DNA from: Patescibacteria group bacterium
GTDB lineage: Bacteria > Patescibacteriota > Gracilibacteria > JAHISY01
NCBI GenBank assembly: GCA_043797545.1
Contig: JAZDPN010000073.1
Span: 1-57,523, forward strand
Direction of reading: 5' to 3'
Length of the DNA: 57,523 bases
Below the pieces are notes generated by a model, which was not told where the DNA came from, ran no database searches, and saw only the letters and a list, made by a program, of their open reading frames with translations. Both the position numbers and the translations under genes were made by a program. This document shows, piece by piece, positions 2,721 through 42,669 of the stretch; position 1 is the stretch's first letter, and each line of letters starts with the position of its first letter.

Positions 2721-3761
2721 ATGAATTTAATTTTGAATGTCAACCAAAATTTTGCGAATTTTTTGGACGAGTCGCGGCGCGACATTTGGCGCTACGCGAA
2801 AATTTTGAGCGATTCGAAAATTGTGAATTTTGTCGACCCGCTGCAAAAAGATTTCACGAAAATCGAGCGAATAGGGGATTTTTGGGTGAAACGGGAAGAC
2901 GAGAGCGCAGTCGGCTCACACAAATTTCGTGCACTCGCGTTCCAAATTTCCCAACTTCTAGAAGCGAAAATCGACCGTGCTGTCCTCTCAAGCTCTGGTA
3001 ATGCTGCAATCGCGGCCTCGCAAATCTTGCCAGAAAATACGAATTTGAAGCTCTTTGTGTTTTTGTCGAAGAAGACACCACCCGCCAAGTTGGCCGGGCT
3101 GAAATTTTCGAAAAACCTTGTTCCGATCCTCTCCGAGCGCCCATTGCGGATGGCGAAATATGCCGCGAAACACTTTGATTTAAGAGATTTACGTCCGTCA
3201 GTCGATCCTAACGCTGCTGTTGGTTTTTGCTCGCTCGGCTTCGAGATTTTCGAGCAAAAACCAGCTATTGAGAATATTTTCAGCTTCGCGACGAGCTTCG
3301 CGAGCGTCCGCGGCATCGCCGAGGCGTTTAAGTTTTTAGTCAAAATCGGTGCTCGGCAAAAAATGCCGAAGATTTTCGCGGTCACCTCGAGTGGAAGGCT
3401 GGCTGGCGAGTTGAGCAGGCAACGAGTAGACACGAGTAGACAAGCAAAAGTTGTCCAGTGGACAGAAGTAGACACAAGTGGACAACGAGTAGCGAAGTCC
3501 GCCGAAGCCTCGGCGAAGGCGGAACAGCTGGTAAATATCTCTGATGCAGAAATTTTGGCGACTCGTCAGAAACTGCCCGAGCTGAAAACTTCGAATGAAG
3601 GTTTGGCGAGTCTCGCCGCCGCCACGAAAATCAAACCGCAAGGGGAGACTTTGGTGATTTTGACGGGACGAGCTTGGCCGGACAAAAATGTTGATCTGGA
3701 TAAATTTGAAGAAGCTGACAATTTTGCAGAAGCTGATAAAATGGTCGCTCGTCATGGCTAA
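2721..3761 (+). CDS. PLP-dependent enzyme, fold type II (TrpB/ThrC/cysteine-synthase-like)
   Basis: Contains the lysine motif ESAVGSHKFRA, the SSSGNAAIAAS segment, and a glycine-poor TSSG loop. Carries repeat copy C in frame. The ATG at 2721 lies 13 bp from the divergent lysW-like start. Confidence 0.6.
   Translation: MNLILNVNQNFANFLDESRRDIWRYAKILSDSKIVNFVDPLQKDFTKIERIGDFWVKREDESAVGSHKFRALAFQISQLLEAKIDRAVLSSSGNAAIAASQILPENTNLKLFVFLSKKTPPAKLAGLKFSKNLVPILSERPLRMAKYAAKHFDLRDLRPSVDPNAAVGFCSLGFEIFEQKPAIENIFSFATSFASVRGIAEAFKFLVKIGARQKMPKIFAVTSSGRLAGELSRQRVDTSRQAKVVQWTEVDTSGQRVAKSAEASAKAEQLVNISDAEILATRQKLPELKTSNEGLASLAAATKIKPQGETLVILTGRAWPDKNVDLDKFEEADNFAEADKMVARHG
3425..3527. repeat. Composite repeat copy C (heptamer array, TGTCCAGTGGACA palindrome, hairpin TCCGCCGAAGCCTCGGCGAAGGCGGA)
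   Basis: GTAGACA occurs at 3426, 3436 and 3468, and GTGGACA variants are also present. The hairpin at 3498-3523 differs from 1478-1503 at 2 nt. Translated as SRQRVDTSRQAKVVQWTEVDTSGQRVAKSAEASAKAEQ. Confidence 0.9.
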
Positions 3762-6638: not shown

Positions 6639-7208
6639 ATGCAAATTTCTTACTTTGGCCAGCTCGGCTTTCTTTTGAAAGGATCGGACGCCTCGGTCGC
6701 TCTGGCTCTGCCTGCCGACAAAATCGGGGAAGCCGAAATCGTGATCACCGCGACCGAAGATGAGGTCATCAAGGCTAGCAGCAAACAAACTGTTTTCGAT
6801 TGGCCGGGAGAATACGAATCCAAGGGCGTGAGCGTGGCTCTGATTCCTGTCGGCAAAGACAAACCTTCCCGTATCGCCAAAGTTATCATTGACGGAATCG
6901 CGCTAGTCCATCTCGACGGAGTGAGCGAACCGCTAACCGAAAAGGAAGAAGAAAAGATCGGGAATGTTGATTTGCTTTTAATTTCGATTGGCAAAAATGC
7001 CACTCTCGACGCCAAGCAAATTAAAAATACCATCGAAGCGCTTGAGCCGAAAATCGTAATTCCGATGAATTTCGCGGACGGCGAGGAAAAAGAATTCGCG
7101 AAACAGCTCGGTTTCGGCGAGGCCGAAGCGGAAAACGATTTGAAATTGAAAGCGAGCAGTCTGCCGTCTGACCGGATGGAGCTCAAAATTTTGAGGTCGA
7201 GGAAATAG
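6639..7208 (+). CDS. UPF0173/MBL-fold hydrolase-like protein lacking the HxHxDH metal motif
   Basis: MQISYFGQLGFLLKG..., PGEYESKGV, VDLLLISIG and PKIVIPMNF align with the family pattern. The position of the His motif reads EIVITATEDE. Confidence 0.45.
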   Translation: MQISYFGQLGFLLKGSDASVALALPADKIGEAEIVITATEDEVIKASSKQTVFDWPGEYESKGVSVALIPVGKDKPSRIAKVIIDGIALVHLDGVSEPLTEKEEEKIGNVDLLLISIGKNATLDAKQIKNTIEALEPKIVIPMNFADGEEKEFAKQLGFGEAEAENDLKLKASSLPSDRMELKILRSRK

Positions 7209-7296
7209 GGAGTGGGTGAAGATTTTTAACCTACTCTAAAATTCACAAGTGTTTTTGCGTTGCACATTACACATTGATAATTAATAATTGATTCAC

Positions 7297-7371
7297 GGCC
7301 CCGTAGTTCAATGGATAGAACAATTCCGTCCTAAGGAAGAAATGTAGGTTCGATTCCTGCCGGGGCCACCA
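7297..7371 (+). tRNA. tRNA-Arg (anticodon CCT), CCA encoded
   Basis: Hand-folded cloverleaf: acceptor GGCCCCG/CGGGGCC, D stem GTTC/GAAC, anticodon loop GTCCTAA, T arm GTAGG-TTCGATT-CCTGC. Confidence 0.85.
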
Positions 7372-7378
7372 AAATGTT

Positions 7379-7403
7379 CTCCGCTGCAAGCGGAGGTTAT
7401 TTT
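7379..7403 (+). terminator. Intrinsic terminator after tRNA-Arg
   Basis: Stem CTCCGC/GCGGAG with loop TGCAA, followed by GTTATTTT. Confidence 0.6.
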
Positions 7404-7532
7404 GGTGATTGCGGTGGGTGAGAAATACAAAAGCTCGTGCTTTGTTTTTCGAAAAACATTTCGGCGCGCGCCGCCACAAAGTGGCCCCTTCGGGGCGAAA
7501 TAATTTAAAATTCGCACGCGCTCGCAGCGAAT

Positions 7533-7555
7533 TTCGATTCCTGTCGGGGCCACCA
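7533..7555 (+). repeat. Direct copy of the 3' 23 nt of tRNA-Arg(CCT)
   Basis: TTCGATTCCTGTCGGGGCCACCA versus 7349-7371 TTCGATTCCTGCCGGGGCCACCA (22 of 23). The upstream sequence cannot form a T stem, so this is not a second tRNA. Confidence 0.9.
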
Positions 7556-7556
7556 A

Positions 7557-9032
7557 TTAAAAATTCAATTCGCGAATCGCCTGCCAGCGCCCAACCGACC
7601 AAATCGGACCTCGAGTAATTGTTTGAATTTGGGTAAAAAGTTTTTGCAACTGCGAATCAGTCAGTAAATTTTTATTTTGTGAAAGCGAATCGAGATAGTC
7701 GGTCGGCAGCTCGCGCGCGAAATGCCCGATACGCCAATTCGGCGTGGCGGGAAGGCGCGCGAGAAATGCATCAGTGAGCGCATATTCATCGATGATCACG
7801 CAATCACGTGGCGCAAGAAATCCGTAAATGCCGACATTTGCGAACGATCGAATGCCGTGACATTCGCCCTGGTTTTTCGGCGCCCAAGAGTGATTTTCGA
7901 TACCGCCGAGACGAATCATCGCGAACAAAGAATTTTCTGATTCGAAAAATTCGCGCTCATCCGCGATGCCGAAATCGTTGATTGTTTTTGCCGCGATCGG
8001 ACTGCCCGAAAAATTAATTCCCCAGCCGACAACCGCGAACAGCAAAATAATTTTGGCGAATTTTTTGAGCTGAACAAGGTCGGGGATTTGTCCGAGCAAA
8101 ATTACCGAGCCGAAAAAAAGTGGGGCGAGGAAACGACCGGACATGAAGTCGCCGCCGATTTTGAGAATATAAATTAGATACAAACACAGTCCCGCCGCGA
8201 GGCCGAGCAGTTTTTTCGAGCGAGAAACGAGCGACCAAACGAACGCAGCGAAAATCGTCGCGAGCGTGAGCGGATCGCGAATGAAAGAGTCGATTAAATA
8301 TTTGCCGCCCTGCGCGAGCAAAGCGAGCGGCGCGATTCCGGTCGCGAGTTTCGCGTAAAAAGTATTTGGGAAAGGAAAACCGAAATAAATCAGCGCGAAA
8401 AATTCCCACAGAATGAGTGGCGTGTAGCCGAGCAAAATTTGACCGAACGCTTTTGCTTTGTGCGGCGCGGCGAAAAATTCCCAGAGCAAGACCGGAACGA
8501 AAAGCAAAATCGTGTCGAGGCGATTGACCGTGGCGAGTGCGGCGACGAAGGAAAGCGCAAGCAGTTTTCGCGGCGAATCTTTTTGGAAAAAAATGAAAAC
8601 GAAAAGCGCGAACAAAAGATTGGTCAGCGGATTTTCGAGGCCGGAAGTCGCGAAATCGAGAAAAGCGTGCGAAAAAAACAGAAGCGCGAGTACGAAAATT
8701 TTGGCGAAGTCGCGCGAGATTAATTTGCGCAATACGAGCGCGAGCGCGGCGCAGCTCGTCAAAAACGAGACGCTCAAAGTCGTGAAGTACGCTTCGCGGG
8801 TGAGGAAATAAAACGGCGTGAGCAGAAATAACCAAAGCGGGTGAGTGAAAACTTGGACACGCTCGACGACATTCCAGCGCAAGCCGAAACCGTGCACGAA
8901 GTTGTCGATCACGCGCAAGGTAATAAATGCGTCGTCGGAGATCCACGCTCGCGCGACGAGACGGACAAGTAAAAACCCGAGCAAAATTCCGATCCCGATT
9001 CGCAGCCAAGTTCGTTTTTTGAGTGCGTTCAT
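7557..9032 (-). CDS. GT-C fold membrane glycosyltransferase (ArnT/PMT/arabinofuranosyltransferase-like)
   Basis: About 12 TM helices and an N-terminal loop motif WISDDAFITLR typical of GT-C enzymes. Confidence 0.55.
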   Translation of the reverse strand: MNALKKRTWLRIGIGILLGFLLVRLVARAWISDDAFITLRVIDNFVHGFGLRWNVVERVQVFTHPLWLFLLTPFYFLTREAYFTTLSVSFLTSCAALALVLRKLISRDFAKIFVLALLFFSHAFLDFATSGLENPLTNLLFALFVFIFFQKDSPRKLLALSFVAALATVNRLDTILLFVPVLLWEFFAAPHKAKAFGQILLGYTPLILWEFFALIYFGFPFPNTFYAKLATGIAPLALLAQGGKYLIDSFIRDPLTLATIFAAFVWSLVSRSKKLLGLAAGLCLYLIYILKIGGDFMSGRFLAPLFFGSVILLGQIPDLVQLKKFAKIILLFAVVGWGINFSGSPIAAKTINDFGIADEREFFESENSLFAMIRLGGIENHSWAPKNQGECHGIRSFANVGIYGFLAPRDCVIIDEYALTDAFLARLPATPNWRIGHFARELPTDYLDSLSQNKNLLTDSQLQKLFTQIQTITRGPIWSVGRWQAIRELNF

Positions 9033-9060
9033 CGCGAAAATTTTACGCTAAAATCGCGCC

Positions 9061-9543
9061 GTGAAAATTGCGCTTATTTCAGATTCGCACGGCGCGCTCG
9101 ATCGACTCGAGGAAGTTTTGCACAATTTCGACACGGCTGGGATTCGCGAAATCGTGCACGCGGGGGATTTCGCGCTTGGAGAAATCGTGGAACTTTTGTC
9201 TAATTTTCCACAGTTGAGTTTCCGGATCGCACGGGGAAACTGCGATGTTGATACTGAGAAAATTTTGGCAATTGCGAATTTACCGAATGTCGAACTCGAG
9301 GAAATTTTGGAGTTCGAGCTCGGCGGACGGCGCATCGCGGTCGCGCATCGGATTCGAGATTTAGCCAATTCAGACGCGCCAATCTTGATTTCTGGACACA
9401 CGCATATTCCGAGCGCGAAAGCGGTGAATGGAAAATTATTTTTGAATCCGGGCTCGCTGATGGATGACGGCGGCTATTTCATTTTGGATTTGGCGAATTT
9501 AATTGTTGAGCGCAAGCTTTTTTCTGACAAAGCTCTGGCTTAA
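9061..9543 (+). CDS. YfcE/MJ0936-family metallophosphoesterase
   Basis: Motifs ISDSHG, HAGDF, GNCD and SGHTH. GTG start. Confidence 0.75.
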   Translation: MKIALISDSHGALDRLEEVLHNFDTAGIREIVHAGDFALGEIVELLSNFPQLSFRIARGNCDVDTEKILAIANLPNVELEEILEFELGGRRIAVAHRIRDLANSDAPILISGHTHIPSAKAVNGKLFLNPGSLMDDGGYFILDLANLIVERKLFSDKALA

Positions 9544-9567
9544 AATTGGGCTGCGCTATTTGGAAAC

Positions 9568-10083
9568 ATGGACCGAATCGAAGTTCACAAAACGATCGCC
9601 ATCGTCACTATCAAGCTAATGATTTTGCAGCTGTTTTTTGCCTTGGTATATTTGGCGACATCTTTGATTAGTGATTCTGTTGATCTATACAACAACGGCA
9701 CTTTTATGAATCTAATCGCTTACGACAGTCTGACTTTTATAATTATTGCTTTGGTGCATTTGGCAATCACTTCGTATATTTTTTTGCAGTGGACGATGGA
9801 AAAATACATTCTCCTGCCCGACAAAATCCGCCATCAGTGGGGGATTCTTTTGCGGCAGACCAATTCTTGGGACATTAGCAATATCGAAACTGGCTATATC
9901 ACCGAAAGCGTAGTCGCGCGGCTTTTTGGTTATGGCACGATTACCTTTCACAGCCCGACTTTGGAAACGCGCGTTGTTTTGCGCGATGTTCCCTCGCCTT
10001 CTTTGGTCACGAATTACATTGAGAAAAATTTGGCTTTGCTTGGTAAATCGCCAATTAAGTATTTGAAAGCTGATTCTAAATAA
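9568..10083 (+). CDS. Membrane protein with a bacterial PH (YdbS/YdbT-like) domain
   Basis: Two N-terminal TM helices, then a WDISNIETGYITESVVARLFGYGTITFHS pattern. Confidence 0.45.
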   Translation: MDRIEVHKTIAIVTIKLMILQLFFALVYLATSLISDSVDLYNNGTFMNLIAYDSLTFIIIALVHLAITSYIFLQWTMEKYILLPDKIRHQWGILLRQTNSWDISNIETGYITESVVARLFGYGTITFHSPTLETRVVLRDVPSPSLVTNYIEKNLALLGKSPIKYLKADSK

Positions 10084-10142
10084 AAAATAATGTTGCATTT
10101 AGCTAACTTTGAGTTAGAATTAGCTCACTTTAATTTTTAAAA

Positions 10143-10523
10143 ATGCAGTACAAAAGATATCGCTCGCTCAAAATCGGACTTGTGATGCTACTCGCTGCGA
10201 CTGTCGGTGGCTTCGTCAGTCAGGGAAATTTTGTGATTCCGCTGGTCGCTTTTGCGATCGCCGCAGGAACAATTTTTCTAGTCAGTCGTCACGTTGATTC
10301 CGTTCAAAATGATGAGCGCATCGAAAAAATCGGCGGCAAAGCGGCGCGCTGGATACTCGCGATTTTTGCAATCGGAGGCGCGATCGCGAGCATCGTCCTC
10401 ACCGCGCTCGCCAAAGATAATCCGATTTATCAAATTCCGGCCTATATTTTTTCGGGTCTAGTTTGGTTTGTCTTGGTTGGACATCTGGTTTTGTTTTATT
10501 ATTTCAATCGCAAAGGCGAATGA
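10143..10523 (+). CDS. DUF2178-like membrane protein
   Basis: Four TM helices. Translationally coupled (ATGA) to a small XRE regulator, which is the usual DUF2178 context. Confidence 0.4.
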
Positions 10524-10714
10524 AAAACCGGATCAAAATTTTTCGCGCACAGTTTGATTTGACACAGAACGCACTCGCGGAAAAAGTCGGCGTGCGTCGC
10601 GAGACGATCGTTTTTCTCGAACAAGGAAAATACAATCCCTCGCTCGAGCTCGCTTTTCGCATCGCGAAAGTTTTTGGCGAACCGCTGGAAAATGTTTTTA
10701 TTTGGGAAAAATAA
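10520..10714 (+). CDS. XRE-family HTH transcriptional regulator (YozG-like)
   Basis: The sequence [48 protein letters not shown] is a canonical Cro/C1 HTH. Confidence 0.8.
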
Positions 10715-10717
10715 ATC

Positions 10718-10740
10718 TGGCGGAGGGAGAGAGATTCGAA
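10718..10740 (-). repeat. Direct copy of the 3' 23 nt of tRNA-Ser(GGA)
   Basis: TGGCGGAGGGAGAGAGATTCGAA versus 10881-10903 TGGCGGAGGGAGGGGGATTCGAA (21 of 23), in the same orientation as the tRNA. Confidence 0.9.
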
Positions 10741-10880
10741 GCTGGCTTCAAGTTCTGTTTTTAATTTGAGATTGTCGGCGGCGCGCGCCGAAATGGTTCG
10801 CGAAATACGGAACGCGAGCTACCAGGTGTCTCACCCACTCCCCGCGCCAAAAAATTCGCCTGTGCGGGGGCAATTTTTCG

Positions 10881-10970
10881 TGGCGGAGGGAGGGGGATTC
10901 GAACCCCCGAGGCAGTTGCCCGCCTACCCGCTTTCCAAGCGAGCGCACTCGGCCACTATGCGATCCCTCC
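10881..10970 (-). tRNA. tRNA-Ser (anticodon GGA), long variable arm, CCA encoded
   Basis: The reverse complement folds with acceptor GGAGGGA/TCCCTCC, anticodon loop TTGGAAA, an extra arm GGCGGGCAACTGCC, and T arm GGGGG-TTCGAAT-CCCCC. Confidence 0.85.
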
Positions 10971-13144: not shown

Positions 13145-13189
13145 AAAAATCCGCCAATTTTAGCAGAAATATAAGCTAAAAACAATTCG

Positions 13190-13232
13190 TTTTATTTCAA
13201 ATACTCATCCCACGCCTTGATCGGCAACTCGA
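13190..13232. repeat. Direct repeat, left copy: duplicate of the last 13 codons, stop codon and 3 downstream nt of carB
   Basis: GTTTTATTTCAAATACTCATCCCACGCCTTGATCGGCAACTCGA matches 14560-14602 with one mismatch. Confidence 0.9.
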
Positions 13233-13280
13233 CTAACAATCCATCACTTTACTCGAACGTATTTCAATTTTTTATAAAAT

Positions 13281-13475
13281 ATGTTAAAATGCGCAGAAAC
13301 AAAAACTATGAAATCCAAACAAAAATCACTCCTGCCGCTTGCGGCTGAGATGCTGCAAACGCTCGACGCGGCACAAGAAAAAGAATTGGCACGCAAAAAA
13401 ATACTCGCGAAACGAACCGAGGAACTTTCTTCGCGAATCGAAGATTTCGAACAAACACAAAAACTTTTGGGTTAA
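13281..13475 (+). CDS. Small coiled-coil protein (64 aa), cassette gene 1
   Basis: ORF in an AT-rich segment. Its stop overlaps the next start (TAATG). Confidence 0.4.
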   Translation: MLKCAETKTMKSKQKSLLPLAAEMLQTLDAAQEKELARKKILAKRTEELSSRIEDFEQTQKLLG

Positions 13476-14560
13476 TGTCAATCGAAAACAAAGACCGACC
13501 ACCTGTTGCCAAAACAGAAACTGAGCTTGAGCGTTTAATGCCCGAGTACGCCGAAATGCGTGATGCGATTATTAATGTAGAGGTGGCCGCAAACAAAATG
13601 GAGCTGCAAAAAAGACAAGCCGACGATATTAACAATGAAATCGTTGATCGTCTGTCAACAATTAAAGTGAAAATAGATCAGCTCGCCAAAAAATATCCCG
13701 ACAACGATAGTCTGCGGATACTTATGGATATGTACGAAGATATTAGTCAGGATTTTATTTACAGTAGGAAAACTCGGGTTGACACAAGTTTGCAAAAAAG
13801 ATTGGCGGAAGTGCAAAAATCTGTCGTCGATGCTGGAATTACTACCGTTCCCTCGGAAAATATTGATAACCCGAAAACAAAAGAATTGGTCGCAAAGATG
13901 CAGCAACTCGGAATCCCGATTGAACGAGTCACAACTCGCCCAAACGCAGACCGAACTGTGATTCTGATAGTCTGGGCCCATCCCAATCCCGGGATGAATG
14001 AGGAAGTAAGAAAGGAGTTCGGCATCTTTGAAAGTCAAAACAAAGTTAATGATTATATTGCCAAATTATCTCAAGCTGGAATTTCAAATCATGTACTTAC
14101 CGAGGGAATTCCGGCCAATATAAGTCCTGAGCTTAAGGCAAAAGTCTTAGCTGAAATGGCCCAAAATGGGTTTCCGTTTATAAATTTAACAAATATTTCT
14201 ATTGAGGGTGTCGAAAACAAAGCTTTTTTGCTAAAAACAGCAACCGATTTAAGTTCAGCTAATTACCAAATCAGGGCAACTATCAACAATATAGTCATGG
14301 CTCACAACATCGAAAATTCTATGCGGTCTGGAGAGGTTTCGATCGCCGTCATGGGCGCGGCTCACGAATTTGAAATCGATCAGAGCGAACATCAATTGTC
14401 TTACTCGCAGGCCACCTCTTTCGAAGCTAATGCTAATGTGATTGTCATAAATACGGCAAGGGAGTTCTACGAAGCTACTCGCGACCCTAAAAAAATGGAG
14501 CTCATGAAGCAAGCAGCAGCCAATTTTCAGGCAGGGATTAAAGAACAGTTTTCGAAATAG
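13475..14560 (+). CDS. Hypothetical protein (361 aa), cassette gene 2
   Basis: Long AT-rich ORF with an N-terminal coiled coil. The C-terminal half carries VWAHPNP and VMGAAHEFE motifs. I can assign no family with confidence. Confidence 0.55.
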   Translation: MSIENKDRPPVAKTETELERLMPEYAEMRDAIINVEVAANKMELQKRQADDINNEIVDRLSTIKVKIDQLAKKYPDNDSLRILMDMYEDISQDFIYSRKTRVDTSLQKRLAEVQKSVVDAGITTVPSENIDNPKTKELVAKMQQLGIPIERVTTRPNADRTVILIVWAHPNPGMNEEVRKEFGIFESQNKVNDYIAKLSQAGISNHVLTEGIPANISPELKAKVLAEMAQNGFPFINLTNISIEGVENKAFLLKTATDLSSANYQIRATINNIVMAHNIENSMRSGEVSIAVMGAAHEFEIDQSEHQLSYSQATSFEANANVIVINTAREFYEATRDPKKMELMKQAAANFQAGIKEQFSK

Positions 14561-14602
14561 TTTTATTTCAAATACTCATCCCACGCCTTGATCGGCAGCT
14601 CG
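14560..14602. repeat. Direct repeat, right copy (functional 3' end of carB)
   Basis: See 13190-13232. Confidence 0.9.
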
Positions 14603-17600
14603 AGATCGCGATATTGCTCGAGCGAATCGACAACCAATTTCGCAACCTGCGGATTGACGAACAACGGAATGCCGAAGTCCGTCGCGCGGCGGCGAATCAG
14701 ATAGCCGTTCGTCATTTCCTCGGCTTGATAATTTTTCGGAATATTCACGACCATGCCAATTTGTTTTTGGGCAAAAAGGTCGAGGACGTTTGGCTTCTGC
14801 TTCTCGAGCGGAAAATGCACCAAAGTATTCGCCACACCGTTGTCGGTCAAAAAGCGAGAAGTGCCCGGCGTCGCGAAAAGTTTGAAACCCATCGCGATCA
14901 GTTTTTGCGCGGAGGGGAGGAAGGCCAATTTCGAATCAATCGATCCAGTCGAGATGAGAATATTTTTCTTCGGCAAACGGAAGCCGACCGCGATCTGCGC
15001 TTTGAGAAAAGCTTCGTGCAAATTCTCGCCGAAACACGCGACTTCGCCGGTCGACGCCATCTCGACGCCGAGCGTCGGATCCGCACCTTTGAGCCGCGAG
15101 AAAGAAAACTGCGCGGCTTTCACGCCGACGTGATTGAGGTCGAGAGTTTGGTAGTTTTGTTTCCGCCACGCTTTCGGCGCGACTTTGCCGAGCATCGCCT
15201 CGATCGCGATCGCGATGAAATTGTGCCCGGCAGTTTTGGAAACGAACGGGAACGAGCGGCTAGCTCGTAAATTTAACTCTATGACCGCGACACGATTTTC
15301 TTTCGCGAGAAATTGAATGTTGAATGGGCCAGTGATTTTGAGTTCCGCGGCCAATTTTTTCGCGATAATTTTGATGCGTTTAATCGTCTCGAGATAAGTT
15401 TTTTGCGGCGGCAAAACCAAAGTCGCGTCGCCCGAGTGGACGCCAGCATTTTCGACATGCTCGGAAACCGCGAAAATTACGAGCTTCCCGTCGGCGGCGA
15501 CTCCGTCGAAATCGATTTCGCGCGCGCCTTCTTCAAATTTCGAAATCACGACGGGCGCGTCGGTTGAAATTTTCGTGGCCTTGGCCAGATAATTTTGGAG
15601 CTGCTCGGCGGTGAACGCGACGGACATCGCCGCGCCGGAGAGAACATAACTCGGACGAACGAGCACCGGGTAGCCGACTTTTTTCGCGAATGACATCGCG
15701 TCAGAATTTTGGGTGAACTCGGACCACTGCGGTTGGTCGATCTCGAGCGAATCGCAAAGCTGCGAGAATTTTTCGCGCGACTCGGCGCGGTCGATCGAAA
15801 CCGGGGAAGTTCCGAAAATCGGAACTTTTTCCGCCGCCAATTTTCCGACGAGATTATTCGGAATTTGTCCGCCCGTCGAGACGACGACGCCTTTCGGTTT
15901 CGTGAAATCGAGAATGTCGAGGACGCGCTCGACGGAAAGCTCGTCGAAATAAAGTTGGTCGCAGGAGTCGTAATCCGTCGAAACAGTCTCGGGATTGTAA
16001 TTGATCATGATTGTCTCGAAACCGTTTTTCGCTAAAGTTTGGACGGCGGAGACACAGCACCAATCGAATTCGACGGACGAACCAATGCAGTACGCGCCGC
16101 TTCCCAAAACAACCGCGCGGGGCCGTAGCCCGCCGAAGCTCGAAGAGCGAAGGCCGGGTTTTTTGGAGAATTTAATTTCGTCGCTCGTATCGCCGTGGTA
16201 GGTCAAATAAAGATAATTTGTTTTCGCGGGAAACTCCGCAGCAAAAGTGTCGATTTTTTTGACGACCGGGAGAATACCGAATTTTTTGCGGCGTTTGCGA
16301 ATTTCCAATTCTCCGACGCCCGCACGCCACGCGATTTGCGAATCGGAAAAGCCCAATTTTTTTGCACGGGAAAACTCGTCTTTCGACAATTTTCCTTTTT
16401 GGGCTTTGAGAATGTCGCGCTCGAAGTCGGCGATGTTTTTGCATTTTTCGAGAAACCACTCGTCGATGCCGGTCAGTTTTTTAATTTTTGCGACCGACCA
16501 ACCGTCGCGCAGCGCGCGCGCGATCGCGAAAATTCTTTCCGGCGTCGGCTTGGAAATAACTTTTTCGAGCGAGTCGAATTTGAAATTGGCGTGACTGAAA
16601 CCGTACGCGCCGACCTGCAACATGCGCAGCGCTTTTTGCAAAACTTCCTCGAACGAGCGACCGATCGCCATCACTTCGCCGACCGATTTCATTTCGCTGC
16701 CAATCTCGGCGGAAACTTTACGGAATTTTTGGAGATCCCAGCGCGGGATTTTGAGAACGAGATAATCGAGCGCCGGTTCGAAACACGCGGTCGTGTTGCC
16801 GGTCACCGCATTCGGGACTTCGTCGAGTCTTTTGCCGAGCGCGAGTTTCGCAGCGACATGCGCGAGCGGATAGCCGGTCGCTTTCGACGCGAGCGCGGAG
16901 GAGCGCGACAAGCGCGCATTTACTTCGATCACACGATAATCAATTTTGTGCGGATCGGTCGGATTCGGATGCAGCGCGTATTGAATATTGCATTCGCCGA
17001 CGATGCCGAGGTGTCGAATCACGCGAATCCCGATTTCGCGGAGCGCGTGATATTCGTAATTGTTCAAAGTTTGCGACGGCGCGACGACGATCGACTCGCC
17101 GGTGTGAATGCCGAGCGGATCGAAATTTTCCATGTTACAAACCGTCAAACAGGTGTCGGCGGAATCGCGAACGACTTCGTATTCGATTTCTTTCCAGCCG
17201 CGCAAATCTTCTTCGATCAAAACTTGCGGCGACGCCGAGAACGCGACTTCGAGTAATTTTTTCAGCTCGGCAGGATTTTGAGCGAAGCCCGAGCCTTTGC
17301 CACCGAGCGCGTATGCTGCGCGAACAATCACCGGGAAACCAATTTTTTTGGCGGCGGCGATTCCTTCAGCTTCGTTGCGCACGGCTTGCGCACGCGCGGT
17401 CGTCACTCCAATTTCGTTTAATTTTTTGACGAAAAGTTCGCGGTCTTCGGTCGCCTCGATCGCAGAAATTTGCGTGCCGAGAACTCGAACTTTGTGTTTT
17501 TTGAAAACACCGCGCTTTTCCAGCTCAACTCCGCAATTGAGCGCGGTCTGACCACCGAAAGCTAGCAAAATTCCGTCCGGCTTTTCTTTTTCGATGATCC

Positions 17601-17838
17601 GCTCGACAAAGCGGGGGGTGACCGGGAGGAAATAAACGCGGTCCGCCACCCCGGCTGAAGTTTGATTCGTAGCAATGTTCGGATTGACCAAAATCGTTTC
17701 GATTTTTTCTTCTTTCAGGGCTTTGATGGCTTGACTACCAGAATAATCGAATTCCCCTGCCTCGCCGATTTTTAGAGCGCCAGAACCGAGTACGAGAACC
17801 TTTCGAACTTTCTCCGAATAGGCCTTTTTGAGCTTCAT
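14563..17838 (-). CDS. carB: Carbamoyl-phosphate synthase large subunit
   Basis: Duplicated ATP-grasp architecture: KVLVLGSGALKIGEAGEFDYSG and a second VVLGSGAYCIGSSVEFDWCCV. The C-terminal domain is MGS-like. Length 1091 aa. Confidence 0.9.
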   Translation of the reverse strand: MKLKKAYSEKVRKVLVLGSGALKIGEAGEFDYSGSQAIKALKEEKIETILVNPNIATNQTSAGVADRVYFLPVTPRFVERIIEKEKPDGILLAFGGQTALNCGVELEKRGVFKKHKVRVLGTQISAIEATEDRELFVKKLNEIGVTTARAQAVRNEAEGIAAAKKIGFPVIVRAAYALGGKGSGFAQNPAELKKLLEVAFSASPQVLIEEDLRGWKEIEYEVVRDSADTCLTVCNMENFDPLGIHTGESIVVAPSQTLNNYEYHALREIGIRVIRHLGIVGECNIQYALHPNPTDPHKIDYRVIEVNARLSRSSALASKATGYPLAHVAAKLALGKRLDEVPNAVTGNTTACFEPALDYLVLKIPRWDLQKFRKVSAEIGSEMKSVGEVMAIGRSFEEVLQKALRMLQVGAYGFSHANFKFDSLEKVISKPTPERIFAIARALRDGWSVAKIKKLTGIDEWFLEKCKNIADFERDILKAQKGKLSKDEFSRAKKLGFSDSQIAWRAGVGELEIRKRRKKFGILPVVKKIDTFAAEFPAKTNYLYLTYHGDTSDEIKFSKKPGLRSSSFGGLRPRAVVLGSGAYCIGSSVEFDWCCVSAVQTLAKNGFETIMINYNPETVSTDYDSCDQLYFDELSVERVLDILDFTKPKGVVVSTGGQIPNNLVGKLAAEKVPIFGTSPVSIDRAESREKFSQLCDSLEIDQPQWSEFTQNSDAMSFAKKVGYPVLVRPSYVLSGAAMSVAFTAEQLQNYLAKATKISTDAPVVISKFEEGAREIDFDGVAADGKLVIFAVSEHVENAGVHSGDATLVLPPQKTYLETIKRIKIIAKKLAAELKITGPFNIQFLAKENRVAVIELNLRASRSFPFVSKTAGHNFIAIAIEAMLGKVAPKAWRKQNYQTLDLNHVGVKAAQFSFSRLKGADPTLGVEMASTGEVACFGENLHEAFLKAQIAVGFRLPKKNILISTGSIDSKLAFLPSAQKLIAMGFKLFATPGTSRFLTDNGVANTLVHFPLEKQKPNVLDLFAQKQIGMVVNIPKNYQAEEMTNGYLIRRRATDFGIPLFVNPQVAKLVVDSLEQYRDLELPIKAWDEYLK
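16119..16158. repeat. GC-rich hairpin element related to the murD/PLP hairpins, inside the carB inter-half linker
   Basis: GGGGCCGTAGCCCGCCGAAGCTCGAAGAGCGAAGGCCGGG shares CCGTAGCC..GCCGAAGC..GCGAAGGC with 1868-1896 and 1478-1503. It encodes GLRSSSFGGLRP just before the second GSG motif. Confidence 0.5.
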
Positions 17839-17993
17839 CTGGTGGATTTTAGCGAATTTTTGGGGAAATTCCATAACTTGACAAAAAAACACGATAATTT
17901 CAATAAATGTCTATTTTCATTGAAAAACAAGCCCGATTCTGCTAAAATACCCAGATTCCTTTTCTAAAGGGAGCAAGTTTAAAAAAAATAAAA

Positions 17994-32618: not shown

Positions 32619-35045
32619 ATGAAAACCCAAACAAAAACCAAGCCTTTCATCCTCTGGTTCGACCAGCTCGGAATCGAGGACGTCCCGAGCGTGGGCGGCA
32701 AAAATGCTTCACTCGGCGAGATGTACCGCAACCTTTCTAAAAGGGGCGTGCGTGTACCAAACGGTTTCGCGATCACGGCGCACGCTTACCATTATTTGCT
32801 TGAAAAAGGTGGCGTGAAAAATGCGATCAAAAAAGCGCTCACTGGTCTCGACACACGTGATGTCGCCGATCTCGCGCGGCGCGGCGCGAAAGTTCGGGAA
32901 ATAATTTTGGCGACGCCTTTTCCGGCCGATCTCGCCGAGGAAATCAAAATCGCGTACAAAAAACTTTCGCAAAATTACAAAAGGGTGAATGTCGATGTCG
33001 CGGTACGCAGCAGCGCAACGGCGGAAGATTTGCCGGATGCGAGCTTCGCTGGCCAGCAAGAAACTTATTTGAATATTTCCGGCCCGACCCAGTTGATTGA
33101 AGCTTGTCAAAAATGTTTCGCTTCGCTTTTCACGAATCGCGCGATCAGCTACCGCGAAGACAAACATTTTGATCATTTTTCCATCGGACTCTCGATCGCA
33201 GTGCAAAAAATGGTGCGCTCCGACTTAGCTTGCAGCGGCGTGATGTTTTCGATCGATACGGAGAGTGGTTTCCGCGAGTCAGTGTTAATCAACGGTTCGT
33301 GGGGTTTGGGTGAGAATGTCGTGCAAGGTGCAGTCACACCAGATGAGTTTTTTGTTTTTAAGCCGACACTAAAAAAAGGGAAGCGCCCAATCTTGTCGAA
33401 AAAAGTCGGCAGCAAAACGATCAAGATGGTTTACGCGACCGATGGAAATAAACCGACTGTGAATATCAAAACGCCGACTGAGGAACGCAAAAAATTGGTT
33501 TTGAACGACGATGAAGTTTTGCAGCTCGCACGCTGGGCCTGCATCATCGAAGATCATTATTCGGCGAAAGCCGGGCACTTCAAACCGATGGACATGGAGT
33601 GGGCGAAGGACGGCCAAACGGGACAACTTTTCATCGTCCAGGCGCGACCGGAAACAGTCCAGTCGCGTCGCGATTTGTCCGTCCTAGAAACTTATGAGCT
33701 GAAAAAGGGGGGCACTGTGATTGTCGAGGGTGCACCCGTCGGCGAAAAAATCGGAGCAGGCAAAGCCAAGATCATCAAGAGCGCCCATGAAATCGGGCAG
33801 TTCAAAAAGGGTGAGGTTTTGGTAACCGACATTACCGATCCGGACTGGGAGCCGATCATGAAAATCGCAAGCGCAATCGTGACGAATCGCGGCGGTCGAA
33901 CTTGTCACGCGGCGATTGTCTCGCGCGAACTCGGGATTCCGTGCGTCGTCGGGACGCGCGACGCGACCGCGAAAATTAAAACTGGTAAAGATATCACGGT
34001 TTCTTGTTCCGAAGGCGAGATCGGCAAGGTCTATGCTGGAAAATTGCCGTTTGAGATTAAAAAAGTGAATCTCAAAAATCTGCAACGGCCGAAAACTAAA
34101 ATGATGATGAATCTCGCTTCGCCGGACGAAGCTTTTTCTCAGTCGTTCGTGCCTAATGACGGAGTAGGACTGGCGCGGGAAGAATTCGTGATTAACTCGT
34201 ATATCAAAATTCATCCGCTCGCGCTTTTGAATTTCGAGAAATTGAAAGATGCTGACGCGAAAAAACAAATCGCCGAACTGACTTACGGTTACAAAAATAA
34301 AGCCGATTATTTTGTCGAAAAACTCGCCCAGGGAATTTCGATGATCGGCGCGGCGTTTTACCCGAAAGATGTGATCGTCCGGCTTTCCGATTTCAAATCG
34401 AATGAATACGCGAATTTGATCGGCGGCCGCGAATTCGAACCGCACGAGGAAAATCCGATGATCGGCTGGCGCGGCGCGAGTCGCTATTACGATCCGAAAT
34501 ATCGTGACGCTTTCGCACTGGAGTGCAAGGCTTTGAGAAAAGTCCGGGAAGAAATGGGCCTGACGAACGTGAAGATTATGATTCCGTTTTGTCGGACGGT
34601 CGAGGAAGGTGAAAAAGTCCAGGCCGAGATGAAAAAGCACGGTTTGGAACGCGGTAAGAATGGTTTGCAGATTTATGTGATGTGCGAGATCCCTTCGAAT
34701 GTGATTCTCGCGGAAGACTTCTGTAAAATTTTTGACGGTTTCTCGATCGGTTCGAATGACCTCACGCAATTAACTTTGGGCGTCGATCGCGATAGCCAAT
34801 TGGTCAGTCATGTTTACAACGAACGCAATGCGGCCGTGAAAAATTTAATTTCGCACGTCATAAAAGTCGCCAAGAAAAACAAACGCAAAATTGGCATTTG
34901 TGGACAAGCGCCGAGCGATTTCCCAGACTTCGCGCGATTTTTGGCGAAGGAGGGAATCGATTCGATTTCGCTAACCCCAGATTCTCTGCTAAAAACTACG
35001 ATCGACATCGCCAAGCTGGAAAAGCGAAAATCTAGCGGAAAATAA
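32619..35045 (+). CDS. ppsA: Phosphoenolpyruvate synthase
   Basis: Motifs VGGKNASLGEM, phosphohistidine GGRTCHAAIVSRELGIPCVVG, and the C-terminal PEP-utilizer TIM barrel GSNDLTQ. Confidence 0.9.
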   Translation: MKTQTKTKPFILWFDQLGIEDVPSVGGKNASLGEMYRNLSKRGVRVPNGFAITAHAYHYLLEKGGVKNAIKKALTGLDTRDVADLARRGAKVREIILATPFPADLAEEIKIAYKKLSQNYKRVNVDVAVRSSATAEDLPDASFAGQQETYLNISGPTQLIEACQKCFASLFTNRAISYREDKHFDHFSIGLSIAVQKMVRSDLACSGVMFSIDTESGFRESVLINGSWGLGENVVQGAVTPDEFFVFKPTLKKGKRPILSKKVGSKTIKMVYATDGNKPTVNIKTPTEERKKLVLNDDEVLQLARWACIIEDHYSAKAGHFKPMDMEWAKDGQTGQLFIVQARPETVQSRRDLSVLETYELKKGGTVIVEGAPVGEKIGAGKAKIIKSAHEIGQFKKGEVLVTDITDPDWEPIMKIASAIVTNRGGRTCHAAIVSRELGIPCVVGTRDATAKIKTGKDITVSCSEGEIGKVYAGKLPFEIKKVNLKNLQRPKTKMMMNLASPDEAFSQSFVPNDGVGLAREEFVINSYIKIHPLALLNFEKLKDADAKKQIAELTYGYKNKADYFVEKLAQGISMIGAAFYPKDVIVRLSDFKSNEYANLIGGREFEPHEENPMIGWRGASRYYDPKYRDAFALECKALRKVREEMGLTNVKIMIPFCRTVEEGEKVQAEMKKHGLERGKNGLQIYVMCEIPSNVILAEDFCKIFDGFSIGSNDLTQLTLGVDRDSQLVSHVYNERNAAVKNLISHVIKVAKKNKRKIGICGQAPSDFPDFARFLAKEGIDSISLTPDSLLKTTIDIAKLEKRKSSGK

Positions 35046-40115: not shown

Positions 40116-40978
40116 AACTTTTTGCTAAACAAATCGCCGAGTTAAATTTGCGAAATCGCGAATACCGCGATTTTGTCGCGAAATTACTGGGTTTTTTATT
40201 GAAAGCCGATTTGGGGGAAGGCGACCTGACGACAAAATTATTGTCTCGGCCGCGACAAAAAGTTCGCGCGCGCGTCGTCGCGAAGTCGAGTGGAATTTTG
40301 GCGGGCGTCGCCGAGTTGAAATTTTTTTGGGAGCAAAACGGCATCCGAATTTTGTCCGCGAAAAAAGATGGAGCAAAAATCAAAAAAGGCGATTTGGTTT
40401 TGGAAATCGCTGGCCCGGCTGAAAAAATTCTAGCGGCGGAACGAGTCGGCCTGAATCTGCTCGGCAGAATGTCGGGCGTCGCGACCGCGGCGGAAAAACT
40501 CGCGCGGAAAATCGGACGCGGAAAATTCGCGGCGACACGCAAAACTCCGCTCGGAATTTTGGATTCGCGCGCGGTCGTCGTCGGCGGCGGACTTCCACAC
40601 CGGCTGAATTTGGGTGATCAAATTTTGGTGAAAGAAAATCACCGCGCAGTCGAAGCAAATTGTTGGCAAAAAATTCCGACGGGGAATGTTTTTGAAATCG
40701 AGGCGGATTCACCGAAGTTGGCACTCGAAATTGCGACGCGTTTCGCAAACGCGAAAAATCTAATTTTGATGCTCGACAATTTTTCGATTGCACAGTTTCG
40801 GAAAACGGCTGTTGCGATTCGGAAAATAAACCCGCGGATAATTTTGGAGGCGAGCGGCGGGGTTGATGAAAAATCCGCCGGGAAATTTTTGCGCGCTGGG
40901 GCAGATTTTGTCTCGCTCGGGAAACTAACGAATTCTGTCGCGGTTGTCGATTTTAGTTTAAAAATTTTGACAAAATGA
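40112..40978 (+). CDS. nadC: Nicotinate-nucleotide pyrophosphorylase (carboxylating)
   Basis: Motif TRKTPLGILDSRAVVVGGGLPHRLNLGDQILVKENH. ATGA overlaps on both sides. Confidence 0.85.
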   Translation: MKLFAKQIAELNLRNREYRDFVAKLLGFLLKADLGEGDLTTKLLSRPRQKVRARVVAKSSGILAGVAELKFFWEQNGIRILSAKKDGAKIKKGDLVLEIAGPAEKILAAERVGLNLLGRMSGVATAAEKLARKIGRGKFAATRKTPLGILDSRAVVVGGGLPHRLNLGDQILVKENHRAVEANCWQKIPTGNVFEIEADSPKLALEIATRFANAKNLILMLDNFSIAQFRKTAVAIRKINPRIILEASGGVDEKSAGKFLRAGADFVSLGKLTNSVAVVDFSLKILTK

Positions 40979-42390
40979 AAACTGATTTTCTCGTCGTCGG
41001 CTCTGGAATCGCCGGACTCACTTCGGCCTTATTCCTGGCGAAAAAGGGCAATGTGCTGATCGCAACGAAAAAAAATTTACTCGAGTCGTCGTCGCGCTTT
41101 GCACAAGCTGGCGTCGCTGCCGTGCGCAATTTCAAGTGGGATTCGTTCGACGAACATTTCGCCGACACGCTCGTCGCCGGCTGCCAAGTCAATGACCGAA
41201 AGGCGACGCGCTTTTTGGTCGAAAATGCGCCGAAATTGGTCGACTGGCTTGAGTCGGAAATCGGCGTGAAATTCGCGAAAGAGCCGACACGCGAAGCGGC
41301 GCACTCTCACTCGCGCGTATGGAACACGAACGATTCGACTGGCGAAACGATCGAAAAAGCGCTCGCGCGAAAAGTTCGCGCAAATCGGAGAATTCGCGTT
41401 TTGGAAAAAACGACTTTACTAGATTTGATTTTGGAAAAAGGAATTTGCCGCGGTGCGTGGCTACTGCGAAACGGAAAAGTTGAATCTGTTTTCGCAAGCA
41501 AGGTAATTCTCGCAACAGGTGGTTTCGGGCAGCTTTTCGCGAAATCGACAAATCCGGAGGTTTCAGTCGGCGACGGGATCGCGGCAGCCGCACGCGCCGG
41601 CGCAAAATTAAAAGATTTGGAATTTATTCAATTTCACCCGACCGCACTCGTCGGCAAACAAACGCGGCTGACTTTGTTTTCGGAAAGTCTCCGCGGGGAA
41701 GGCGCGGTACTGCGCAACTCGCGCGGCGAAAGATTTTTGCCGAGTTATCATCCCGCCGCCGAACTCGCCCCGCGCGATGTAGTCGCGCGCGCGATTTTCG
41801 CGGAATTGAAAAATGGTCCGGTTTTTCTCGACTTCACGCGCGCGAGCGCAAAGTTCTTATCAAATCGCTTTCCGTTAATTTGGGGCGAAGTGAAGAAAGC
41901 CGGCTTCGACTTGTCGAAAGATTTGATCCCAATTTTCCCGGTCGCGCATTACTCCTGCGGCGGTGTCGCAGTAAATTTGCGTGGCGAAACGTCAGTGTCG
42001 AATTTGCTCGCGGTCGGCGAAGTCGCACGTACCGGATTGCATGGCGCGAACCGACTCGCTTCGAATTCGCTCGCTGAGGCGCTCGTTTTCGGAAAATTTT
42101 TGGGCGAAACGGCGCAACTTTCGAAAGTTGACGAATTTAAAGTCAGGCCGCCAAAATTTACTTTCAGCCTGAAAGAAGATTTGAAAATCCGGCAAAAAGT
42201 CCGGGGAATAATGTGGGAAAAGGTCGGAATCGTCCGCACGAAAAAAGGACTCGCGGCGGCAGTCGCCGAGCTCGGGAAGCTGCGACCAAAAAGTTTAGTT
42301 GCGCGAAATGCAGTGCTCGTTGCGTCGCTCGTCGCGAATTCAGCAAAAAAACGAACAAAAAGCCTCGGGACGCATTTTTTGGCGAAATAA
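40975..42390 (+). CDS. nadB: L-aspartate oxidase
   Basis: FAD motif DFLVVGSGIAGL plus the RFAQAGVAAV, HPT and HYSCGGV motifs. Confidence 0.85.
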   Translation: MKTDFLVVGSGIAGLTSALFLAKKGNVLIATKKNLLESSSRFAQAGVAAVRNFKWDSFDEHFADTLVAGCQVNDRKATRFLVENAPKLVDWLESEIGVKFAKEPTREAAHSHSRVWNTNDSTGETIEKALARKVRANRRIRVLEKTTLLDLILEKGICRGAWLLRNGKVESVFASKVILATGGFGQLFAKSTNPEVSVGDGIAAAARAGAKLKDLEFIQFHPTALVGKQTRLTLFSESLRGEGAVLRNSRGERFLPSYHPAAELAPRDVVARAIFAELKNGPVFLDFTRASAKFLSNRFPLIWGEVKKAGFDLSKDLIPIFPVAHYSCGGVAVNLRGETSVSNLLAVGEVARTGLHGANRLASNSLAEALVFGKFLGETAQLSKVDEFKVRPPKFTFSLKEDLKIRQKVRGIMWEKVGIVRTKKGLAAAVAELGKLRPKSLVARNAVLVASLVANSAKKRTKSLGTHFLAK

Positions 42391-42399
42391 TCGCAAAAA

Positions 42400-42417
42400 T
42401 GGTGCGCCCGGCAGGAT
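42400..42417 (-). repeat. Direct copy of the 3' 18 nt of tRNA-Arg(TCG)
   Basis: TGGTGCGCCCGGCAGGAT is identical to 42593-42610, in the same orientation. Confidence 0.9.
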
Positions 42418-42555
42418 AAATTCGCCATGGGCGAATTGGGCTGCTGCGTCGCTCGCGCACGACAAACAGCTACGCTGTTGTCGCGACTCGCTATCCTCGC
42501 AGAACGAACCTCGCTTGCTTCGCTGCGCGGCAAATTTTCACCACGCCCGACAACC

Positions 42556-42582
42556 ACGCAAAACCTGCCCGCTTCGCGGGTC
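42556..42582 (-). terminator. Intrinsic terminator after tRNA-Arg(TCG)
   Basis: On the minus strand: CCCGC-GAA-GCGGG followed by CAGGTTTT. Confidence 0.5.
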
Positions 42583-42592
42583 AGAACTTGCG

Positions 42593-42669
42593 TGGTGCGC
42601 CCGGCAGGATTCGAACCTGCAACCCCCGGTTCCGAAGACCAGTGCTCTATCCAGTTGAGCCACGGGCGC
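42593..42669 (-). tRNA. tRNA-Arg (anticodon TCG), CCA encoded
   Basis: The reverse complement folds with acceptor GCGCCCG/CGGGCGC, D arm GCTCAACTGGATAGAGC, anticodon loop CTTCGGA, and T arm GCAGG-TTCGAAT-CCTGC. Confidence 0.85.

Follow-up and report, generated by a model that had tools for sequence, protein, structure and literature searches.

Why should a tRNA gene be followed, a short way downstream, by a second copy of its own 3' end? The question is raised by contig JAZDPN010000073.1 of a Patescibacteria group bacterium (assembly GCA_043797545.1), of which we refer to positions 1 to 57,523 (57.5 kb) as the window. The window has ~49% G+C, is ~90% coding and fits the standard genetic code well, and the source names of its closest proteins suggest a bacterium like the Peribacteria/Peregrinibacteria. 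Downstream of 3/3 of its tRNA genes lie a hairpin that involves the NCCA end of the tRNA, a structured spacer, and then a direct copy of the tRNA from T-loop to CCA. We name these insert A (after tRNA-Arg-CCT), insert B (after tRNA-Ser-GGA) and insert C (after tRNA-Arg-TCG). The reading that we favour, with about as much doubt as confidence, is that the inserts are footprints of integration into tRNA 3' ends, of the type left by the left and right attachment sites (attL and attR) of an integrated element, and that they were either shrunk to, or built as, mini-inserts devoid of an integrase. The analysis covers three tRNA loci of one genome and one orthologous insert (C) in a second genome, together with syntenic loci of relatives (Peribacteria-like bacteria of the candidate phyla radiation, CPR) that were reached through the flanking proteins; statements on function are inferences from sequence throughout.

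Duplicated tRNA ends and the same loci in relatives

The spacer between the CCA of the tRNA and the duplicate measures 161 nt in insert A, 140 nt in B and 175 nt in C (Table 1). The A and B duplicates both extend from the first base of the T-loop to A76, 23 nt each. The duplicates lie close to the stop codons of convergent genes: 1 nt from that of a glycosyltransferase-like gene (7557..9032, minus strand) in A, 3 nt from that of a helix-turn-helix (HTH) gene (10463..10714, plus strand) in B, and 9 nt from that of nadB (40975..42390, plus strand) in C. At the other end of each insert, the outer stem of the left hairpin joins the NCCA end of the tRNA and the first trailer bases to a complement further downstream, the pairs being CACCAAAAT/ATTTTGGTG for Arg-CCT, CGCCA..AAAAATT/AATTTTTTGGCG for Ser and ACCACGCAAG/UUUUGCGUGGU for Arg-TCG. 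The original prediction had pointed out that TGGTG (7403-7407) and TGGCG (10845-10849) are complementary to the last 5 nt of their cognate tRNAs, and this is so, 31 nt past CCA in both cases; in the folds TGG(T/C)G is the base of the left hairpin, where the tRNA end pairs with its own trailer.

A complete tRNA gene at one end of an insert and a partial copy at the opposite end constitute a recognised signature of integration (PMC9897764, citing Reiter 1989 and Williams 2002). We read the inserts as att-type mini-insertions because a tRNA and a partial 3' copy flank each of them, and because the same layout occurs at carB. There, a 1109-aa carB-like gene (14563..17892, minus strand) has its 3' end, stop codon included, directly repeated over 49 nt (13184-13232 and 14555-14603, 94% identical), and the two copies flank a 1.3-kb insert (13233-14554) carrying a 361-aa open reading frame (ORF) and a small upstream ORF. 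In the closest relative, a different gene lies between the M50 protease gene and carB, and the 1.3-kb insert is absent. By its sequence the carB insert appears to follow the same layout as the tRNA inserts, in which the 3' end of the target gene is restored. Its 361-aa ORF was considered as a recombinase and rejected, as it gave only a weak TraB/PrgY/GumN-like match.

Because six related loci carry the tRNAs without them, the inserts are, on comparative grounds, lineage-specific additions that lie outside the normal context of the tRNA genes. In one of these loci (L133), whose M50 protease is 88% identical to that of the window, tRNA-Arg-CCT and tRNA-Ser both occur, and after 72 nt other genes follow, with neither the duplicate nor the core sequence that inserts A and B have in common. 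The same tRNAs occur without core or duplicate in L122, L125, L138 and L140, and tRNA-Arg-TCG occurs without insert C in L176. The six empty-site relatives are distant, and exact empty-site junctions are not definable from them.

If the inserts arose by integration, the distal copy of each tRNA end should be the original and the proximal one the import, and the pattern of serine alleles matches this prediction. The T-stem of tRNA-Ser is GGGGG/CCCCC in the window and in L122, and GAGGG/CCCTC in 5/6 of the relatives compared. At the corresponding place the Ser duplicate reads CTCTC, where the tRNA-Ser of the 5/6 relatives has CCCTC and the tRNA of the window has CCCCC with GGGGG opposite; moreover, the duplicate matches the tRNA-Ser of L133, L134, L135, L136 and L140 at 22/23 positions. 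Thus the Ser duplicate keeps a T of the relatives that the working tRNA has lost, as expected at this one informative site if the distal copy is the original.

The surroundings of these tRNAs are variable. At the 3' end of tRNA-Ser, contigs of relatives break within 0-2 nt in three independent assemblies, which suggests strain-variable or repeated DNA at this point in natural populations. Between the convergent tRNA-Arg-CCT and tRNA-Ser (7372-10880) the gene set is different in every relative (L122, L125, L133 and a JGI locus), the varying genes being a glycosyltransferase, bPH, DUF2178, HTH, a cupredoxin/FMN-reductase block and IVP, and the interval, with a tRNA 3' end on either side, resembles a small hot spot where genes turn over.

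Some of the relatives show peculiarities of their own behind tRNA-Ser. In L138 (330-363, minus strand, just after tRNA-Ser) the tRNA end GCCAACC is matched by GGTTGGC past a short hairpin and a T-run, and AT-rich, foreign-looking DNA then runs to the end of the contig, which is too short to contain a duplicate; this may be another insert with an NCCA-pairing left end. Directly after the CCA of tRNA-Ser come TTCGAATC in L122 (9448-9470), 15/23 identical to the 3' part of the tRNA, and TTCGAC in L140 (3999-4006). Both begin like a T-loop, perhaps as remains of tandem copies of the tRNA end that have decayed.

Insert C is the one that we could compare across genomes. In GCA_043799575.1, the closest relative available (NadB 92% identical at the amino-acid level), insert C and its duplicate are identical at 190/193 positions (98.4%), while over the 18 kb around them the two genomes are ~79% identical, with identities of 0.44-0.80 at third codon positions and 0.57-0.82 in other intergenic regions. 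The high identity stops exactly at the CCA of the duplicate, and past it the host flanks are not alignable: up to the nadB stop there are 37 nt, including a hairpin, in the relative and 9 unrelated nt in the window. All three substitutions fall at unpaired positions of the fold of the window sequence, in which 23% of the positions are unpaired (p ~0.013). Two readings remain, namely a recent arrival of insert C in both lineages or a very strong constraint on it, and in either case some structural constraint is likely, as judged from the predicted fold. An assembly artefact is ruled out, since insert C and its duplicate recur in an independent NCBI assembly.

Conservation is also high on the other side of this tRNA, where the 110 nt upstream of tRNA-Arg-TCG are 97% identical in the same relative and conserved even in the more distant L176. 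The 110-130-nt region concerned (42670-42797; L175 11721-11850; L176 12224-12355) separates tRNA-Arg-TCG from a divergent fn3/Big_1 surface-protein gene; it is 97% identical to the closest relative and ~80% to the distant one, the protein gene itself only 66%, and by these figures it is probably a strongly constrained divergent promoter region.

Table 1. Coordinates of the tRNA genes, inserts, core copies and duplicates in the window, and of contig ends in relatives
Feature	Position	Strand	Basis or remark
Extra box 1 copy GGGAGTGGGTGAAGAT	7208..7223	+	75 nt upstream of tRNA-Arg
tRNA-Arg (CCT), complete, CCA encoded	7297..7371	+	ARAGORN; Rfam tRNA 61.7 bits
Insert A left end: terminator-type hairpin, 18 pairs, containing TGGTG	7367..7408	+	Minimum-free-energy fold
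Core copy A	7408..7475	+	47/62 to copy B; only significantly similar part of the spacers
Box 1 GTGGGTGAGA	7414-7423	+	Within core copy A
Core hairpin CAAAAGC-TCGT-GCTTTG	7428-7444, then T5 at 7445-7449	+	Within core copy A
Palindrome CGGCGCGCGCCG	7462-7473	+	Inside exact 19-mer 7457-7475
~23-nt double hairpin GCCAC-AAA-GTGGC, CCCC-TTCG-GGGG	7476..7502	+	In A, not B (alignment indel; fold)
Hairpin AATTCGC-N11-GCGAATT abutting duplicate	7509..7533	+	Sequence; folds
Duplicate of tRNA-Arg (CCT) 3' end, T-loop to CCA, 22/23	7533..7555	+	Sequence comparison
Duplicate of tRNA-Ser 3' end, 21/23 to the window's own tRNA	10718..10740	-	Sequence comparison
Insert B right 36 nt, unlike insert A	10741..10776	-	Fold; local comparison
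Core copy B	10777-10844	-	Within insert B left 104 nt
Insert B left 104 nt: AT-rich hairpin CGCCA/TGGCG (10845-10849), then core	10777..10880	-	Fold; alignment
tRNA-Ser (GGA), complete	10881..10970	-	ARAGORN
Duplicate of tRNA-Arg (TCG) 3' end, 18/18	42400..42417	-	Sequence comparison
Insert C: ACCACGCAAG/UUUUGCGUGGU hairpin, GC-rich structured body, no core	42418..42592	-	Fold z = -3.95
tRNA-Arg (TCG), complete	42593..42669	-	ARAGORN; Rfam
Contig ends at tRNA-Ser-GGA in relatives	L136 1-92, L137 1-88, L139 2-91		NCBI GCA_043799575.1 and two Logan runs

The core of inserts A and B and the anatomy of the inserts

The original prediction concerned a conserved core in the tRNA-linked spacers, and its alignment was confirmed on recomputation: 7414-7475 and the reverse complement of 10777-10838 are identical at 47/62 positions without gaps, and no other ungapped placement on either strand of the window exceeds 31/62 (mean 15.5, sd 3.7). 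When extended to 7400-7475 and 10777-10852 (76 nt, 72%), the pair is the longest inverted repeat that a repeat search finds in the window. Its two boxes, box 1 GTGGGTGAGA (10/10) and the 19-mer CATTTCGGCGCGCGCCGCC (19/19), are exact in both copies at the 43-nt offset that had been described, and the 19-mer has two sites only in the window even when 3 mismatches are allowed. The further box described upstream of tRNA-Arg was also recovered, as the 12-mer GGGAGTGGGTGA that is exact at 7208-7219 and, in copy B, at 10831-10842; it belongs to the extra box 1 copy, GGGAGTGGGTGAAGAT, which stands directly after the stop of the upstream gene and is able to form a hairpin with ACCTACTCT. As a feature common to the tRNA-linked spacers, the core holds for Arg-CCT and Ser (2/3) but not for Arg-TCG: insert C lacks it and has no significant similarity to A or B. 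A and B align without indels from CCA through the 19-mer (104 nt), and significant similarity is confined to a core of ~68 nt (local score 52 versus 15 +/- 2.2 for shuffled sequences); the flanking hairpin on the left and the 36-57 nt on the right fall short of significance.

Core A is composed, in this order, of box 1 GTGGGTGAGA, a hairpin, a run of five T, CGAAAAACATTTCG and the 12-nt palindrome CGGCGCGCGCCG. The pairing of the hairpin is kept in B through two AU to GC double changes, that is, two compensatory pairs in what are, for covariation, two sequences (A and B), and its G-U pairs can form on the tRNA-sense strand only. When the minus strand is read, the palindrome together with AAATGTTTTT scores as terminator-like and faces the convergent gene; the T-run of copy B is poorer than that of A. 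Because a covarying hairpin with a T-run points one way and a GC palindrome with a T-run the other, we infer that the core consists of two putative intrinsic terminators placed back to back between convergent genes. In both A and B, RNAalifold further predicts pairing between the duplicate and the segment that follows the hairpin.

The original prediction called for a search for further copies of the core, and this returned none beyond the two, either in the window or in ~170 kb of DNA from relatives. A scan of a genome contig collection with the 19-mer gave at least 118 chance matches, in high-GC genomes, and the two-box pattern gave only chance matches in coding DNA in viral contigs and JGI metagenomes. 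Spacers A and B had no blastn match in phage records, the tRNA 23-mers found in IMG/VR whole tRNA genes only, with no adjacent core, and two 25-27-mers of insert C had no match there. A candidate third copy at 51420-51450 was rejected as a chance match, being weak and inside a 920-aa coding ORF (50136-52898).

The three inserts contain no credible ORFs, and no promoter-like sites were found in the spacers. With Rfam 15, only tRNA and 5S have matches in the window at the gathering score, and at E <= 5 nothing is confined to the spacers, the sub-threshold matches overlapping the tRNA or the trailer hairpin. The folds of A (z = -5.3) and C (z = -3.95) beat those of shuffled sequences, and the fold of B (z = -1.55) is no better than these.

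In insert A, the left hairpin is formed by C72-ACCA and AAAT of the tRNA and trailer pairing with ATTTTGGTG, and it contains a terminator-like site at 7378-7396 followed by a T run. To the right of the core, GTGGCCCC is able to pair with GGGGCCAC of the duplicate, and the double hairpin is 86-89% similar to intergenic repeats of L133 (19116-19143 and 20023-20051). The stem sequence AATTCGC/GCGAATT, which abuts the duplicate, occurs at the same place in the Arg-TCG insert. A pseudo-tRNA at 7483-7555 was considered and discarded, as its likeness to tRNA is limited to GGCCCC and the last 23 nt, and neither ARAGORN nor Rfam makes a call. The double-hairpin motif, of the type TTCGCCCC-AAGGGG-CCAC-TTYG-TGGC, recurs between genes of relatives (also in L135, 11405-11432), where its outer stem varies yet stays complementary (CCCTCCTTT/AAAGGAGGG versus CCCGCC/GGCGGG).

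Insert B carries TGGCGCGGGGAGTGGG, which matches the 3' end of tRNA-Ser in inverted orientation at 13/16 positions, and in its right part a hairpin, TTGAAG-CCAG-CTTCGA, overlaps the T-loop of the duplicate. The right hairpin of insert C is AATTCGCC-CAT-GGCGAATT; small conserved ORFs were sought in this insert, and the candidates either overlap the tRNA or are not preserved.

Two observations elsewhere in the window deserve mention. Repeats of a AGTAGACA unit (33-67 nt, 82-97% identical) occur at 222-254, 1433-1513 and 3411-3533, within the first 3.6 kb, partly inside or beside NlpC/P60 and Mur-ligase-like ORFs. In a 103-aa ORF at 37509-37820, the third codon position is the most conserved one in the comparison with L175 (0.72/0.78/0.94), and on that account the stretch is probably not coding in this frame; at its counterpart in the relative, genes are called on both strands.

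Proposed integration at tRNA 3' ends and the competing explanations

If the inserts derive from integration, DNA bearing a T-loop-to-CCA copy of a tRNA would have entered the chromosomal tRNA gene by recombination, be it the work of a site-specific recombinase that targets tRNA genes or a Campbell-type single crossover. The working tRNA would now end in insert-borne sequence, followed by an insert-borne trailer hairpin, and the original 3' end would have been displaced downstream, to persist as an attR-like stub beside the old neighbouring gene. The unit that remains, lacking an integrase, could be a minimal non-autonomous unit or a deletion remnant. Its spread between genomes may have relied on the conserved tRNA gene and the short duplicate as two homology arms, and an enzyme-free route is conceivable in which DNA containing the tRNA, insert and duplicate was taken up and exchanged by double crossover; alternatively, a recombinase encoded elsewhere may have moved it in trans. 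The homology of A and B from CCA to a shared end is compatible with two independent deletion derivatives of related larger elements or with a true family of mini-elements; in the former case, it would end at the first deletion junction. Among the possibilities that the original prediction listed, a non-autonomous integrative element best fits the duplicates, the empty sites in relatives and the serine allele, but its other half, mobilization by a tyrosine recombinase, gained no support from the ORFs scanned; the inserts are perhaps remnants and not active elements.

Several points weigh against such an origin. The Pfam scan found no integrase, resolvase, transposase or reverse transcriptase in ~45 ORFs of the window (those at 14563-17892, 32619-35045, 35032-37407 and 50136-52898 were left out), which bears, as far as the window goes, on the suggestion that an orphan integrase or reverse transcriptase be looked for elsewhere in the genome. 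Phage records and IMG/VR contigs matched neither the core nor insert C, and no full-length parent element came to light. The attR-side stubs show no inverted repeat like a T-arm at the T-loop. Since recombination works poorly on double-stranded circles of 160-200 bp, the inserts probably were larger at one time or moved within something else. The case is built on three loci of one genome, out of ~46 tRNAs to be expected in this clade (PMC4736985), and both large DNA scans gave chance matches only. Finally, the conservation of insert C and its unpaired substitutions are explained by a selected function no less well than by a passive scar. Overall, the size of the inserts, the lack of a recombinase in the window, the occupation of 3/3 tRNAs and the conservation of insert C fit the standard picture poorly.

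In a further reading, which we see as possible, if rather unlikely, the inserts would be no dead scars but a family of tRNA-specific, self-contained mini-units of 140-190 nt that persist in and move between CPR genomes of species-level divergence, have no gene of their own and are under selection for their structure. In such a unit an insert-borne tRNA 3' end and its trailer hairpin would be followed by a structured body and, last, by the tRNA end that was displaced. It would move by means of its homology arms (the tRNA gene and the 18-23-nt duplicate) at DNA uptake, or through a T-loop-targeting recombinase acting in trans, and it might be selected, for instance, as a terminator/insulator cassette or as a tRNA-linked RNA.

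Another explanation is a functional RNA linked to the tRNA. The spacer would then be transcribed with or after the tRNA, processed like a 3' external-transcribed-spacer RNA and kept by selection, the copy of the tRNA end serving as a tRNA-like terminus or as the partner of the upstream complementary segment. What speaks for the structured RNA matured together with tRNAs that the original prediction had listed is that the core hairpin has two compensatory pairs and G-U pairs in the tRNA sense only, insert C is 98.4% identical across ~79% identical genomes with its 3 substitutions unpaired, the folds of A and C beat shuffles, and the post-hairpin segment is pairable with the duplicate in A and B. 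However, six related loci have the tRNAs without an insert, so that the RNA would be dispensable; the tRNA is separated from the body by a terminator-type hairpin, and the spacers have no promoter-like site of their own; the fold of B does not stand out; and insert C shares no significant sequence with A and B, nor is there an Rfam match. The apparent covariation of the closing stem stems largely from the inverted tRNA-end copy in B and needs G-U pairs in A, and an identity of 98.4% with no compensatory change exceeds the usual conservation of structured RNAs at such divergence. We regard this explanation as unlikely, though the conservation of insert C and the placing of its substitutions keep it a serious competitor.

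It is quite unlikely, in our opinion, that the inserts are miniature transposons with a fixed, long target duplication, in which a 23-bp staggered cut (at the start of the T-loop and after A76) would have been followed by gap repair. This would explain why one family lies behind different tRNAs, each with a cognate duplicate and an intact tRNA, and why the A and B duplicates have the same length and limits. Yet the exact duplicate in C is of 18 nt, not 23, and the flanking repeats, of 18-23 nt, are tRNA-derived; a comparison of the insert ends found no terminal inverted repeats, and each insert begins with a tRNA-specific trailer hairpin and not with a shared end. In addition, the serine allele speaks for a proximal copy of foreign origin, the window ORFs scanned include no transposase or Cas1-like gene, and we know of no family with a 23-bp duplication.

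We attach a similarly low probability to an origin by local events, namely template switching or fold-back synthesis at terminator hairpins along with small tandem duplications, the core being an intergenic repeat or terminator motif. Inverted partial copies of the tRNA end do flank hairpins (13/16 for Ser; for Arg-CCT, GTGGCCCC..CGAAAT at 7481-7502), the lineage has other small intergenic hairpin repeats, and only two copies of the core are known. Left unexplained by local events are the direct copies that start within the T-loop at 3/3 tRNAs, the near-identity of insert C in a divergent genome with its sharp boundary at CCA, and the T that the Ser duplicate has in common with 5/6 relatives.

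The tRNA-primed retroelement that the original prediction also listed, in which TGG(T/C)G or, on the opposite strand, the 18-23-nt complement would be the primer-binding site of a reverse transcriptase, is extremely improbable and can be set aside: TGGTG and TGGCG do track the discriminator base of the cognate tRNA, and the strand of the convergent gene has a perfect 18-23-nt complement of the tRNA 3' end 1-9 nt past the stop, but the 5-mer is the base of a hairpin formed in cis by the tRNA end and the trailer, the long complement is fully explained by the direct DNA duplicate, robust complementarity is limited to 5 nt where a primer-binding site next to a long terminal repeat would have at least 10-18, extended complementarity to the tRNA 3' end past the hairpin fails as a general rule, being strong only at Ser (13/16, versus 10/16 for Arg-CCT and 8/16 for Arg-TCG), and there is neither a reverse transcriptase among the scanned ORFs nor a repeat resembling a long terminal repeat in the window.

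Known elements and significance

In integrative elements that target tRNA genes, the integrase gene usually lies inside the element, beside one att site. Like the genomic islands and prophages that tyrosine integrases insert into tRNA genes (PMC9897764), the inserts have a complete tRNA at one end and a direct 3' copy at the other, a duplicate that extends from the T-loop region to CCA, empty sites in relatives and a neighbourhood of variable gene content. They differ in that those elements are kilobases long, whereas 140-175 bp are found here with no integrase or other gene, in that 3/3 tRNAs within 57 kb are occupied, and in that a core is common to inserts behind different tRNAs.

Other short or gene-poor elements offer partial parallels. 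The cis-mobilizable elements (CIMEs) of streptococci are att-flanked, integrase-less derivatives of integrative and conjugative elements (ICEs); they are kilobases long and demonstrably come from known ICEs. The inserts resemble them in having flanking attachment-site repeats and no recombination genes of their own, CIMEs presumably relying on a related element that acts in trans or in cis. The parent ICE is known there, but none is here, and the inserts are ~20-50x smaller. Repetitive extragenic palindromes and bacterial interspersed mosaic elements (REP/BIME), enterobacterial repetitive intergenic consensus sequences (ERIC), Correia elements and Rickettsia palindromic elements exist in many dispersed copies with short or no target duplications. 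These small palindromic intergenic repeats and MITE-like elements are, like the inserts, short, hairpin-rich, non-coding and placed between convergent genes, where they can act as terminators; in contrast to the inserts, none is bounded by a copy of a tRNA 3' end, and only two core copies are known in our case. RNAs of the type of the E. coli 3' external transcribed spacer 3'ETS-leuZ are short trailers upstream of a terminator. These too are non-coding, lie directly downstream of a tRNA and are potentially released in tRNA processing, but in the inserts, known from their sequence alone, a terminator-type hairpin comes first and the duplicate of the tRNA end last.

What would these inserts mean for the bacteria that carry them? 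In practice, a 3'-end stub may be mis-called as a fragment of a tRNA; the stubs coincide with the break points of three independent assemblies of relatives, and they single out the interval between the convergent tRNAs as one where gene turnover is high. That insert C is nearly identical in genomes that are ~79% identical is a concrete and testable anomaly. If the inserts are working units, they would be by far the smallest att-flanked tRNA-gene inserts known to us, and they would represent gene-less DNA riding on the best conserved genes of a genome, in a group, the CPR bacteria, about whose mobile elements little is known.

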